This document shows, one piece after another, positions 12,001 through 15,000 of a stretch of DNA of 39,678 nt. The position numbers were made by a program. Numbering within the stretch: position 1 is the first letter of the stretch; each line of letters opens with the position of its first letter. The stretch is from a virus. Lineage: Duplodnaviria > Heunggongvirae > Uroviricota > Caudoviricetes. The stretch is taken from the IMG/VR virus record IMGVR_UViG_2698536428_000020, one strand, 5' to 3'.

Positions 12001-15000
12001 GACTTTTTTATCTCGCTGCGCTTTGTAGGTGAGCGCGTTGTCACGGTAATGGTTTGTTGCCAGCCACAGCGCACCACAGCCAACCGCCAGGACAATAATC
12101 ACCACACACAGAACACGGTTCATCTCTCTTTCACCCCACCAGTCCCGATAACGTCAGGACTCGCCAGGCGGTGGAAAAGAAAATGGCAACCAGCATGACT
12201 AAAAATGAAATGCCGACGATTACACAGAGGATCTTCGCCAGCGTTATGAGTTTATCCGATATCATTAGCCACTACTCCATCAATCCGCCTTTGTTATTTT
12301 CCCTTTGCCTGTATCAGCTAGGACAAAATCAATCAGCAGATTCGCTTCGTTTATCAATGTGCGGATTTTTGATACATGCGCGGCTTTAACCTGTTTCCAC
12401 TCATTCAGCCCGGTAGCAAACACACTGGCAATGTTTTTATCCCGTTTCATGTCAGCGCAAGCCTGATTGAGTTCTTCCATCACACTCATTCGACGGGGAT
12501 TAACGACAACCCCCTTCGTCCAGTATTCATAGAGAACATCGTCGCACTCTTCCTGATACTGGATTACCTTGTCGCGGATTTCAGGTTTAACTTTGTTTGA
12601 GTTGATGGTCTGAAGCCAGGCAGCCAGCTTACGCAGAGCAAGACAAGTCATTGTTTGCTCACCACCAGCAGAAGGTATTATGATTTCCGTAACGCCTTTG
12701 GCAAATCGTTGTTTTAACTTAGTAAATTGTGGAGCCCAAGCCAGCCCCATCCCCTCAACAATGGGTTTCATTGGAACATACGGTTCGCCATTATGGTTAA
12801 CCACATAAAGAGAATCGCCGTGAAACGGCACGGTCATCATATTCATCGGTTATTTCCTTTTAGTGATGAACCCTGCGCACAGGAATAACCAGCCCAAAGA
12901 GGGTTAACCAGACCAGCCGGTTATCCACCAGGGCTCATCCTGAAAGGTTCTTTGGTTTATTTACGCTTGTGCGAAGCGCAGAAATGACAAAGACACCATT
13001 ACGGTGCCTCAGCGTGAAACAATGTTCCTGACTTTATTCACTTAGGTTTTGCCAGTTCGCAGGATTTCGTGTTATCCGCCCGCGTTGGCCAACGTCATTT
13101 TTCAGCAAAATATTCTGCTTATCTGTCGATTCCCCAGCACGCCAGCGCACTCTCCTGGTCGCGACGGGATACCTGACCATAACAGTTATTTGAGCGGATA
13201 CGGCAGTCTCTGCCACCGTCTTTAATCCACCAGCGAATCGCCTCGCATGCACCCCGGCGATCGCCTGCATTAATTCGTTTATAAAACGTCGACGGGAAAC
13301 ACTTACCGGGGCCAATGTTATACGGGCAGAATGACGCGATCCCCGCTTTCTGGGGTTCAGTCAGTGGCACTTTGATGTTTTTCTCCACCCATGCCAGCGC
13401 CTTATCACGCTCAATGGCGTTAACCCGGTCGCATTTTTCCTTCGACAGCTTCATGCCAGGAATAACAGGCTTACCATCCACCCGGGTGGCTCCACGGCAG
13501 ATGGTCCAGATACCCGCACTATCACGGTATGCCGTGGTGTGGTTACCTTCTTTTTCATCCAGAAACTGATCCAGGATTTCAGGCGCAGAAGCCCCTGCGG
13601 CAATCAGCGCCAGAACGACAGCTGATAAACCATAGCGGAATTTCCGGCTCATCAGCTTACTCTCCCCGCGCCGCCTTACGCCGGTCCTCTCTGATTTTGA
13701 AATACAGGTTCGTCAGGTACGTCAGCAGACCAAACAGCAGACTCCCCAGCACGCCTATTGCCGCCCACTGAGACGGGGAAACCCTGTCCAGCAACTGCAG
13801 GAACCAGTAGCCCGTTCCCACCGCTGACGTGGTGTATGACACACCTGTTGTGATTTTTTCCATCTGGTACATACCCCGCCTCCCGCAATCCGGAAGCTCA
13901 CAACAATAAAAAAGACCACCGGCACACACCGATGGTCCCTGACGCATGCTTACATCATCATGTCGCTGTCAGGTGTGGGGTCACCGCTATCTGAAGCACT
14001 CCCCTCTCCCGCGATGCCTTCCGGCTCCGGAGCTGCCGGTGCGCCCAGCAGTTCATCCAGAATGGCATCCACTTCTGCATCAAGACGCGCTTCCAGGTTA
14101 TGGCGAAGTTTCTGTTTCAGTGCACTCAGGACTTCTTCAGAGCGCAGGACGTCCTTCACTGCTTCAGCAGTGACCAGGGATGTAATTTCTGACATGGGAT
14201 TTTCTCGTCGAAAGGTGTGATTAAGAAAGTTGCCGCTAAACGAGCGGCTCTTCGGGTTTGCTTCCGGCTGACTGACTGGCGCTGATTTTCTCAGCGGCCC
14301 TTTTGTCAATCTGTCTGCGCCAAAAGTCACGCATGGCCCGGTATCCACCCGAAAGGAGATACAGCACACAGACCACCGTACAGAAGTACAGCATTAACTG
14401 GTTCAGAAATGTCATAATTTCTTTCCGTTATTGTTGACAATAAGAACTGTTTTCATTTAAAAAAACAGAGTACGAAAGTATCGTTCCTTTATTTTTTCTC
14501 CATAGGTATTACCACCGCCAGTCCATTCCGGTAACTGGCGGCTTTTTTTATCATGCAGCGGCGTCCGCGTTATTCACTTCCACCGCAATGCTGTCTATCA
14601 GTACCGGGTAAGTCGCACTTTTGGTAATGTCTGTCACATGCAACTTATCCGCCGAAAATGCACTGACCGGTGACTGCGTCAGCGTGAACGGTGTGCCATC
14701 CTGACCATCAATAACCGGCGTCACCTGAAGGCTGTTATTCCCGGCAAAGCGGAAAGCCAGCGTATGCCATTCGTTATCAAATGCGCCAAAGCTTCCCAGT
14801 TTCAGGTTGTTTGTCGCCACTTTCGCATTGTGGTACATCACATTCAGGTCTTTTGCATCCGTCTGGATGTAGAACGCTGCCAGCAGGTTATTCCCCCCAT
14901 CGCCGGTCAGGACAACGCCCTGTGGCAGTGACGATACCGGCCAGTAAAACGCCATAACATACTGGTTCGCCGCCAGCGCTCCCGAAGCCTTAAAGCGGCA

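Follow-up and report, generated by a model that had tools for sequence, protein, structure and literature searches.

In this phage the endolysin and spanin genes are separated by an ant-like gene, a late accessory member of the Bro network of phage regulators. It probably forms part of an accessory cassette of the lysis region that supplies a target-specific regulator, and it is preceded by a conserved, structured RNA leader that has apparently not been described before. The window is the whole stretch of DNA analysed, the 39,678 nucleotides of IMG/VR record IMGVR_UViG_2698536428_000020; the features under discussion are collected in Table 1.

Table 1. Features of the lysis region and the following Bro-network gene, in window coordinates
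Feature	Position	Strand	Basis or remark
S21-type (pin)holin, dual-start motif MYQM	13657..13872	-	Phage_holin_2_1, E 2e-32
Endolysin R, lysozyme with N-terminal hydrophobic SAR-like segment	13119..13652	-	Phage_lysozyme, E 3e-25
Weak terminator-like hairpin, 5' end of the ant cassette	12990..13010	-	GAGGCACCGUAAUGGUGUCUU then UGUCAUUUCU
Structured leader of the ant-like gene, start codon at 12846	12843..12958	-	R1 model, fold z
Leader 5' heptamer A, CCAAAGA	12955..12949	-	pairs with A'
Leader loop heptamer A', UCUUUGG	12900..12894	-	pairs with A
Leader long imperfect hairpin	~12947..12857	-	base pairs CCUUU with AAAGG
Leader Shine-Dalgarno AAAGG, paired in hairpin base	12861..12857	-	predicted fold
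Ant-like ORF, 188 aa, ATG start	12280..12846	-	orthologue of 933W/VT2-Sakai "ant"
ORF of 44 aa, one transmembrane helix, between ant-like gene and Rz	12131..12265	-	phrog_4906
Rz i-spanin	11656..12123	-	E 4e-39
Rz1 o-spanin, embedded in Rz	11697..11903	-	E 5e-21
Intrinsic-terminator-like hairpin and U-run, directly 3' of the Rz stop	11625..11652	-	stem 11652..11633, then T-run
Second leader copy, before KilA-N gene	11473..11588	-	R1, 105.9 bits, E 5e-26
KilA-N + ORF11CD3 gene, 165 aa, ATG at 11475	10978..11475	-	second Bro-network gene, past the post-Rz terminator

Identity and setting of the ant-like gene

The window phage is an Stx1 phage, essentially Shigella phage Ss-VASD, to which the window is 99.9% identical. 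The initial annotation had set an antirepressor-like gene between those for the endolysin and the spanins, and an open reading frame lies on the minus strand at exactly the interval given. Its product is 100% identical to gp47 of Ss-VASD, named "anti-repressor Ant" in that record, and shares 83% amino-acid identity over residues 1 to 188 with the ant products of 933W and VT2-Sakai. Pfam P22_AR_N (PF10547) covers residues 5 to 113 (E 1.3e-43, 148 bits against a cut-off of 30.7 bits) and ORF11CD3 covers residues 121 to 162 of the tail (E 8.6e-6, 26.3 bits against a cut-off of 25), an architecture common to all homologues among the at least 120 listed. PHROG 524, "anti-repressor Ant", also matches (E 1.2e-105). 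Because these formal searches class the gene as Ant-like, the proposed similarity to the antirepressor family stands.

The likeness to P22 Ant holds for the N-terminal domain but not for the other half of the protein. In a tblastn comparison P22 ant matched over residues 1 to 125 only, with 42% identity (E 3e-24; the matched record annotates the gene as "ant: Ant | promoter"). The C-terminal half is ORF11CD3 instead of P22_AR_C (PF10548), which gave no Pfam match in the protein at E <= 0.01 and is carried by two nin-region ORFs of the same phage (21415-22059 and 22314-22976). In the GenBank entries for 933W and VT2-Sakai, the gene that separates R from Rz is already labelled "ant, similar to Ant of P22", so the R-ant-Rz order is not new. 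The gene is the long-annotated 933W-type late ant of Stx phages, and its presence in the lysis cassette is textbook-level Stx-phage annotation that in itself adds nothing new.

The neighbouring holin, endolysin and Rz/Rz1 genes were recovered by Pfam and PHROG searches as first described, all on the minus strand. The cassette is split, as had been claimed: Stx2_EH1846, a close Stx-phage relative with the same S, R and Rz, has an empty slot between R and Rz. The first reading overlooked the 44-aa membrane ORF and the KilA-N + ORF11CD3 gene. The former, of phrog_4906, is also found after an alternative ANT/KilAC gene in phage PhiR5_1.

An intrinsic terminator had been reported to follow Rz. A GC-rich hairpin with UUUUU is present there, but the late operon runs on beyond it into the terminase and head genes, which share its strand. 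The hairpin therefore does not close the operon; it opens the following Bro cassette. The hairpin that opens the ant cassette is a degenerate counterpart of the strong terminators found at the head of its equivalents in Proteus, Salmonella and ST104. The late cassette of the window is made up of this degenerate terminator, a structured leader of about 115 nt, the 188-aa ORF and the 44-aa membrane ORF. Late expression from PR', also suggested at the outset, is the reasonable reading, since no promoter-like site was found upstream of the ant-like gene by a simple sigma-70 consensus scan, which a weak or non-canonical promoter could escape. Candidate promoter sites in the interval from the upstream hairpin to the leader, sought by scan and by eye, were rejected because their spacings are wrong.

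Protein architecture and the Bro network

The ant-like protein is soluble, with a Bro-N/KilA-N-like alpha/beta head (P22_AR_N) joined to a helical ORF11CD3 tail. The AF2 model has a moderate mean pLDDT of 66.7, with values of 70 to 84 in the N-domain. Foldseek searches of BFVD with this model returned Ant-N, Bro-N, KilA-N, BRO and "repressor domain" proteins (E 2e-7 to 4e-3), while those of the PDB returned weak matches (best E 0.05; Ski/Dachshund, DdrC, Mbp1 and I-DmoI, the Mbp1 APSES domain at E 0.14) that we used for no more than the description "alpha/beta DNA-binding-like head." Searching PDB sequences with the protein gave nothing meaningful, the best match being a designed repeat protein at E 0.011, and NCBIfam and PADLOC searches returned no family for it. 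No lysis family was matched in Pfam or PHROGs, and a transmembrane segment is absent, the maximum 19-residue Kyte-Doolittle value being 0.94 as against 1.7 to 3.1 for S, R, Rz and the 44-aa ORF.

The Bro network, as described by Iyer et al. 2002 and cited in PMC10111431 and PMC9043618, comprises proteins in which KilA-N, Bro-N, ORF6N or pRha heads are combined with ANT/KilAC, P22_AR_C or ORF11CD3 tails. The ORF11CD3 tail of the ant-like protein is shared with the KilA-N protein encoded beyond Rz (30% identity over 69 aa, E 2e-8, BLASTP). A literature search found no known activity for any ORF11CD3-tailed member of the network.

A structured RNA leader shared by both late genes

The leader of the ant-like gene has a fold z of -4.8 and scores 88.5 bits against covariance model R1 (E 3e-21). 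With the second copy before the KilA-N gene, each of the window's two late Bro-network genes has a covarying leader of about 115 nt in front of it; in the second copy the heptamers are CCACCGA (11590..11584, starting just upstream of the R1 match) and UCGGUGG. Perfect 7-nt pairing between A and A' is found in 28 of the 34 distinct leaders, in which 15 different heptamers occur, compared with 6.3% and 4.1% in controls. The sequences owe their diversity to a scan of genome contigs, a scan of viral contigs having given near-identical loci only. Because the pairing register shifts by one base between subgroups and column counting is impossible, A:A' was assessed alignment-free, against cross-sequence and shuffle controls; RNAalifold on a MAFFT alignment of the leaders recovered only the upper helix, with 9 pairs. 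Helix 1 is 72% paired overall, some lower-stem pairs being unpaired in roughly half of the sequences, and the lower stem, in which the Shine-Dalgarno sequence is paired, is the least well supported part of the hairpin. The two covarying pairings cross topologically, one forming the long hairpin that extends to the Shine-Dalgarno sequence and the other joining the loop heptamer to the 5' flank. Within the leader loop, a proximal hairpin (X:X'1) proposed by eye was discarded, since the given register was 41% paired, no better than slid controls.

An Rfam search of positions 10900 to 13200 at a permissive threshold (E <= 5) gave chance-level matches only, with no C4/isrK-like or other leader family. 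Annotation of the leader is absent from 305 phage records, and a literature search found no report of the sequence. Elsewhere in the same phage, Rfam matches to C4, isrK and sRNA-Xcc1 (at 22101-23791) precede the three nin-region Bro genes.

Conservation and polymorphism of the slot

Comparison of the ant-like gene with its 933W, Salmonella, Proteus, Xenorhabdus and Serratia orthologues gave dN/dS values of 0.08 to 0.17, and this purifying selection argues that the reading frame is not a chance ORF. Hundreds of Stx phages and more than one complete E. coli genome in ten carry the orthologue, and from Escherichia to Proteus and Xenorhabdus the gene has almost always stayed within the lysis cassette. 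In Proteus and Xenorhabdus prophages the order is holin_3_1, phrog_873 endolysin, ant-like gene and then Rz; these holins and endolysins are unrelated to those of the window, yet the ant-like gene stays beside Rz, and in Proteus its stop overlaps the Rz start. A Salmonella prophage has the gene directly ahead of the holin. Within the protein, residues 36 to 70 form a mosaic segment, and in PhiR5_1 the ANT/KilAC gene fills the same slot behind a near-identical leader.

Possible functions

The reading that we favor, a late accessory cassette encoding a target-specific regulator, would work as follows. The protein would be made only late in lytic growth, by read-through of Q-modified RNA polymerase from PR', because no promoter-like site is recognized and the cassettes lie behind terminator-like hairpins (13010..12990 and 11652..11633). 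The leader, with its long hairpin reaching the Shine-Dalgarno sequence, may further gate translation. The protein would most likely bind DNA or another regulator in a target-specific manner, the mosaic, hypervariable beta-hairpin of the head (residues ~36 to 70) giving specificity and the shared ORF11CD3 tail giving the output. The protein would be directed at the host or at other mobile elements resident there, and not at the envelope. Classical antirepression of heteroimmune CI repressors may be one form of this.

A further proposal, which we put forward tentatively, is that the gene is one interchangeable cargo of a conserved, undescribed type of late cassette, consisting of a terminator, a riboregulatory leader of ~115 nt and a Bro-network ORF, in which the leader acts both as a regulatory switch and as a recombination flank. 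The two topologically crossing pairings are the reason for regarding the leader as a candidate new pseudoknotted or bistable RNA switch, with a logic like that of P1 c4 or P4 CI-seqA. It might keep potentially harmful regulators silent outside a defined late window and provide a common flank for the swapping of cargo genes; the cargo protein of the window phage might then act on regulators of co-resident elements.

Among the alternatives, the one that fares best, although we consider it unlikely, is that the protein is a true antirepressor made late, which, during lytic growth of the window phage, would bind the CI/C2-type repressors of heteroimmune prophages in the same cell and so release these prophages from repression. 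This was the action first suggested for the gene, and it is a possibility and not a finding, because the likeness to P22 Ant is N-terminal only and other "antirepressors" act otherwise. In its favor is the homology to the P22 Ant N-terminal domain, and P22 Ant inactivates several lambdoid repressors according to work cited in PMC3064807. STEC strains are polylysogenic, with up to 12 places per E. coli genome matching the region, and a hypervariable beta-hairpin would suit a surface tracking variable repressors. However, the protein has an ORF11CD3 tail where P22 Ant has P22_AR_C, whereas the experimentally tested Ant of the Stx phage Phi24B resembles P22 Ant in its C-terminal and not its N-terminal domain (PMC3064807), and the genes with P22_AR_C sit elsewhere in the window phage. 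Expression minutes before lysis would leave awakened prophages little time to replicate, which makes any benefit doubtful. Network members named "antirepressor" may also have unrelated activities, as with Listeria AriS, the product of an early gene, which inhibits the SOS response through ANT/KilAC (PMC9043618). A literature search found no experiment on the 933W-type late ant family and no test of its antirepressor activity.

Somewhat less probable still is that the gene is moron-like cargo, spread by recombination at the shared leader, with a job in conflict between elements or with the host (satellite control or counter-defence, for example) or with little benefit to the phage. The slot is indeed polymorphic, being empty or holding a P22_AR_N + ORF11CD3 or an ANT/KilAC gene; one leader type precedes at least seven kinds of Bro-network ORF; and the ant-like gene itself contains a mosaic segment. 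Bro-network genes abound in satellites of the PICI/P4 type, and in PLE the CapR protein represses a capsid promoter, a helper gene being its target (PMC10111431). Against this, PADLOC and NCBIfam gave no match, and Pfam and PHROG searches found no recombinase or homing-nuclease domain in or beside the cassette. Purifying selection is strong, and an orthologue of ~188 aa has long been retained in Enterobacterales and Morganellaceae, which speaks for a stable function and against a passenger. A role for the protein in setting when or how efficiently the host lyses, for instance through spanin or endolysin expression or activity, is very improbable: the adjacency to Rz across genera with non-homologous holins and endolysins, the Proteus overlap and the GenBank note in 933W ("possible regulation of host cell lysis") favor it, but the protein is soluble and lacks a transmembrane segment, signal peptide and lipobox, it belongs by fold and family with the nucleic-acid- or regulator-binding Bro-network heads, sister Stx phages keep S, R and Rz without it, an unrelated ANT/KilAC gene can take its slot, and the Salmonella copy lies upstream of the holin instead.

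The interest of a late regulator of this kind lies in its company, as an orthologue conserved across Enterobacterales and made alongside Shiga toxin. If its targets include repressors or regulators of other resident prophages, the protein would matter for cross-talk between prophages and for toxin output in polylysogenic STEC. The conserved leader offers a concrete handle on how late Bro-network genes are silenced and exchanged between phages.

Comparison with known systems

The closest known counterpart is the ant gene of 933W (NP_049506) and VT2-Sakai, with which the window gene shares its two-domain architecture and its place in the PR' late operon, flanked by R and Rz. The window allele differs from that of 933W mainly in the mosaic segment and in nothing essential; beyond Rz, 933W has bor where the window has the KilA-N + ORF11CD3 gene.

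P22 Ant is a protein of about 300 aa with P22_AR_C as its C-terminal domain, encoded at the immI locus under a promoter of its own and regulated by Mnt, Arc and the sar antisense RNA. Its N-terminal P22_AR_N domain is homologous to the head of the window protein. The settings differ: in contrast to immI, the window gene lies in a lysis cassette between R and Rz, with no promoter-like site and a different RNA leader.

Within the Bro network, the likeness extends from the head, whose fold matches Bro-N/KilA-N proteins, to the tail, which is joined to a different head in the neighbouring gene, and to the slot, in which other network members are interchangeable with the ant-like gene. Characterized members differ from it in place and time, AriS acting early and on the SOS response (PMC9043618) and PLE CapR at a capsid promoter (PMC10111431).

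The leader, for its part, recalls C4, isrK and P4 CI-seqA, which are likewise hairpin RNAs of ~90 to 115 nt lying just upstream of a Bro-network gene (ant, eta), with a loop complementary to sequence further 5' in the same transcript. Unlike the C4/isrK/CI clan, the late leader has no Rfam clan match and no recognizable promoter before it.

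Identity of the late ant gene

The initial annotation described an antirepressor-like gene lying between the endolysin and spanin genes and splitting the lysis cassette, and proposed that its product might act late on heteroimmune prophages. The observation was confirmed, coordinates included; the interpretation was partly supported. Residues 5-113 of the open reading frame match Pfam P22_AR_N (E 1.3e-43), residues 121-162 match ORF11CD3 (E 8.6e-6, barely over the curated cutoff), and the protein matches PHROG 524, "anti-repressor Ant" (E 1.2e-105), so that the expected antirepressor-family similarity is present.

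The reported gene is the late ant of Stx phages, already known, and constitutes an accessory cassette of the Bro network within the lysis region. Over 3.1 kb, the region matches Shigella phage Ss-VASD at 99.9% identity; this Stx1 podophage (Oslovirus, Sepvirinae) has a late operon in the order Q, PR', stxAB, nanS-p esterase, holin, lysozyme, "anti-repressor Ant," Rz. The ant products of 933W and VT2-Sakai share 83% identity with the window protein over the full length, and 933W ant likewise sits between R and Rz. The R-ant-Rz stretch is matched in 2095 of 5426 complete E. coli genomes (674 of these with query coverage of at least 80%); RefSeq names the E. coli protein "phage antirepressor N-terminal domain-containing protein," and a survey of Stx phages placed "Phage antirepressor Ant" families in 126 of 279 phages (PMC8136144). 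From these annotations and this spread, neither the gene nor its position is new; experimental work on the late ant gene was not found in the literature searched.

Organization and expression of the lysis region

All genes of the lysis region are on the minus strand, and they are listed below 5' to 3' on that strand. At the holin N terminus, MYQMEK (13861-13872, minus strand), a second in-frame Met codon follows three codons after the first; we take this to be the dual start for which S21-type holin/antiholin pairs are known.

Features of the nin and late regions of the window
Feature	Coordinates	Strand	Remarks
isrK	23718-23791	-	before ORF6N gene
C4	23609-23692	-	before ORF6N gene
ORF6N gene	23242-23556	-	
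sRNA-Xcc1	23016-23099	-	before ORF6N + P22_AR_C gene
ORF6N + P22_AR_C gene	22314-22976	-	
sRNA-Xcc1	22101-22190	-	before Bro-N + P22_AR_C gene
Bro-N + P22_AR_C gene	21415-22059	-	
Rfam STnc100	16704-16917	-	full-length match, 195 bits, E 4e-45; between stx genes and nanS-p esterase gene
DUF826 ORF	13950-14369	-	
Strong terminator-like hairpin	13911-13940	-	13 pairs then UUUAUUG; directly upstream of holin start, inside late operon
S21-type holin (S)	13657-13872	-	Phage_holin_2_1, E 2e-32
Lysozyme (R)	13119-13652	-	Phage_lysozyme, E 3e-25; N-terminal hydrophobic SAR-like segment
Noncoding gap			272 bp, between lysozyme and ant-like gene
Weak terminator-like hairpin	13010..12990	-	before ant leader; U-tract weak
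Leader copy 1	12843-12958	-	precedes ant-like gene
Ant-like gene	12280-12846	-	188 aa; P22_AR_N + ORF11CD3
44-aa ORF	12131-12265	-	phrog_4906; one transmembrane helix; between ant-like gene and Rz
Rz	11656-12123	-	Pfam and PHROGs
Rz1	11697-11903	-	Pfam and PHROGs; embedded in Rz
GC-rich hairpin and U-run	11652..11625	-	hairpin 11652..11633; after Rz
Leader copy 2	11473-11588	-	occupies 11476-11590 with 5' part; precedes KilA-N gene
KilA-N gene, second "regulator-like" gene	10978-11475	-	KilA-N + ORF11CD3
Terminase and head genes		-	downstream

No sigma-70-like site was found upstream of the ant-like gene; the sole minus-strand site in 10600-14600 falls inside the gene itself, and the region holds fewer such sites than shuffled sequences do. 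Because the terminase and head genes lie downstream on the same strand, the hairpins of the late operon, presumably including the strong one before the holin, would have to be passed by Q-modified polymerase, as in the established lambda-type model of Q-dependent read-through, and transcription of the ant-like gene would be strictly late and Q dependent. The intrinsic terminator reported after Rz exists as a hairpin with a U-run but does not end the operon; with structural genes beyond it, it instead opens the cassette that follows.

The KilA-N gene of that cassette had been called as a 188-aa ORF from GTG 11544 (10978-11544, minus strand), the longer form carried by the Ss-VASD record. This start is probably wrong: family matches begin at residue 24-31, orthologues begin MKSLTLFN, and the position of the leader places the start at ATG 11475, giving 165 aa. 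The protein weakly resembles the PADLOC candidate defense-system protein PDC-S22 (overall E 8e-9, the best stretch being confined to residues 60-90), probably through the shared KilA-N domain only.

Antirepression as a possible function

As judged from alignment, "Ant-like" is the correct family label for the head of the protein: P22 Ant has the head alone in common with it (residues 1-125, 42% identity), and the window protein lacks P22_AR_C, which makes up the rest of P22 Ant. In this phage P22_AR_C is carried not by the late gene but by two genes of a second Bro-network cluster in the nin region (21415-23791, minus strand), where every gene, these two included, follows a structured RNA of the C4 clan. 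Among Stx phages, only the Ant of Phi24B has been tested experimentally; its likeness to P22 Ant lies in the C-terminal domain, and it influenced induction efficiency, not superinfection immunity (PMC3064807). The phage's own repressor (29539-30246) is of the CI type, with helix-turn-helix and S24 peptidase domains, so self-induction is presumably RecA driven, with no contribution possible from a late gene. Listeria AriS, annotated as an "antirepressor," has an ANT/KilAC tail that inhibits the SOS response and a variable head that regulates the phage itself (PMC9043618). Antirepressor activity, and action on heteroimmune prophages above all, is a hypothesis that the domain evidence favors no more than weakly, and we consider classical antirepression of heteroimmune repressors unlikely.

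A probable Bro-network regulator in a polymorphic slot

The AlphaFold2 model (31 sequences) is of moderate quality (mean pLDDT 66.7; N-domain blocks 72-84), and in it a beta-beta-beta-alpha-alpha-beta-beta-alpha head leads into long helices. Comparison with solved structures gave weak matches only (Ski/Dachshund DHD, DdrC, the Mbp1 APSES domain, and I-DmoI; best E 0.05), and predicted viral structures gave matches to Ant-N-terminal, Bro-N, KilA-N, baculovirus BRO, and "repressor domain" proteins (E 2e-7 to 4e-3). The C-terminal part is homologous to that of the post-Rz KilA-N protein (30% identity over 69 aa, E 2e-8). These matches and the shared tail identify the protein as a typical member of the Bro network of domain-shuffling phage regulators (PMC10111431), with a Bro-N/KilA-N-like head and an exchangeable tail.

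In the Stx2a phage Stx2_EH1846, R and Rz are ~90% identical to those of the window and only 298 bp apart, with no ant-like gene between them, which bears out the split described by the initial annotation; the "empty" slot holds a different small membrane ORF overlapping the Rz start. In PhiR5_1, a 160-bp upstream region is near-identical to that of the window as far as the start codon; beyond that point PhiR5_1 encodes an ANT/KilAC-domain protein of 231 aa (E 5e-28), unrelated to the ant-like protein, and then has the 44-aa ORF and Rz as in the window. The first ~110 bp past the R stop are common to all phages compared. The R-Rz slot is thus polymorphic (empty, P22_AR_N + ORF11CD3, or ANT/KilAC), and on these alignments the ant-like gene is an insertion in the comparative sense. 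The 44-aa ORF is kept in PhiR5_1 despite the different cargo.

Two-domain orthologues of ~188 aa (64-100% identity) occur in Escherichia, Salmonella, Enterobacter, Serratia, Photorhabdus, Xenorhabdus, Proteus, Providencia, Sodalis, and Arsenophonus. Proteus and Xenorhabdus prophages have another holin family (Phage_holin_3_1) and another endolysin (phrog_873), and there too the ant-like gene separates endolysin from Rz, its stop overlapping the Rz start in Proteus; in a Salmonella prophage it is directly upstream of the holin. While slot polymorphism might suggest a conflict-related or selfish cassette, we regard this as improbable for a gene with pairwise dN/dS of 0.08-0.17 against five orthologues. 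Control of lysis timing, raised by the 933W record ("possible regulation of host cell lysis," beside P22 Ant antirepressor likeness), is very improbable for a protein with no hydrophobic segment (Kyte-Doolittle maximum 0.94, versus 1.7-3.1 for S, R, Rz, and the 44-aa ORF).

The ant-like protein would instead be a target-specific binding regulator, not a lysis protein. Residues ~36-70 (12637-12741, minus strand), a hypervariable predicted helix and beta-hairpin, are an exception to the low dN/dS and behave as a mosaic replacement: between the window and 933W, dN is 0.44 versus 0.02-0.05 in the flanks, dS is likewise raised, and the orthologue alignment has a few alternative "alleles" scattered across genera. 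This segment may be a specificity surface.

A covarying leader RNA

The 272-bp gap folds with a minimum free energy of -94.4 kcal/mol (z -4.8 versus shuffles), and at the base of a long imperfect hairpin (~12947..12857), CCUUU is paired to the Shine-Dalgarno sequence AAAGG. With filters off, a covariance model of the ~115-nt leader detected it exactly twice in the window (E 5e-26 and 3e-21); in 81 loci it detected 48 copies, which adjoin lysis-region genes and none of which immediately precedes a P22_AR_N gene with a different C-terminal domain. The leader (in the window and in the occurrences beyond it, L003-L013 and L095-L162) is spread among late-region Bro-network genes of Enterobacterales prophages. 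It precedes such genes in 933W, ST104, PhiR5_1, and Salmonella, Proteus, and Xenorhabdus prophages or phages, as well as in Serratia, Arsenophonus, Symbiopectobacterium, and Thorsellia prophages, and at least seven kinds of ORF follow it (P22_AR_N + ORF11CD3, KilA-N + ORF11CD3, other KilA-N, KilA-N + P63C, ANT/KilAC, pRha/Rha-like, and Bro-N).

In a MAFFT alignment fitted to no structure, hairpin positions paired in 79.7% of cases; shuffles gave 67.7% and slid versions 41-54%. Doubly changed cells numbered 144, as opposed to 57 after shuffling, and in the upper helix, where CG, AU, UA, and GC alternate, pairing reached 96%. In 28 of 34 distinct leaders, the heptamer immediately 5' of the hairpin has an exact complement in the apical loop, with 15 different heptamer pairs represented (controls: 6.3% for cross-paired leaders, 4.1% for a shuffled 5' region). 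The window copies themselves differ, pairing CCAAAGA with UCUUUGG before the ant-like gene and CCACCGA with UCGGUGG before the KilA-N gene. Since the hairpin and heptamer pairings cross, the leader would be either a pseudoknot or a two-state switch. It would also gate translation of the ant-like gene.

The leader is apparently undescribed: it had no Rfam match at E <= 5, no annotation in the records listed among the 305 phage records containing it, and no paper printing its sequence or describing an sRNA there in the literature searched. The function of a very widespread gene coexpressed with Shiga toxin, and a leader RNA of this kind, are of moderate interest. Tests for membership in the C4/CI-type clan did not place the leader there; its logic is similar to that of the c4/CI-seqA immunity RNAs, which precede ant/eta-type genes.
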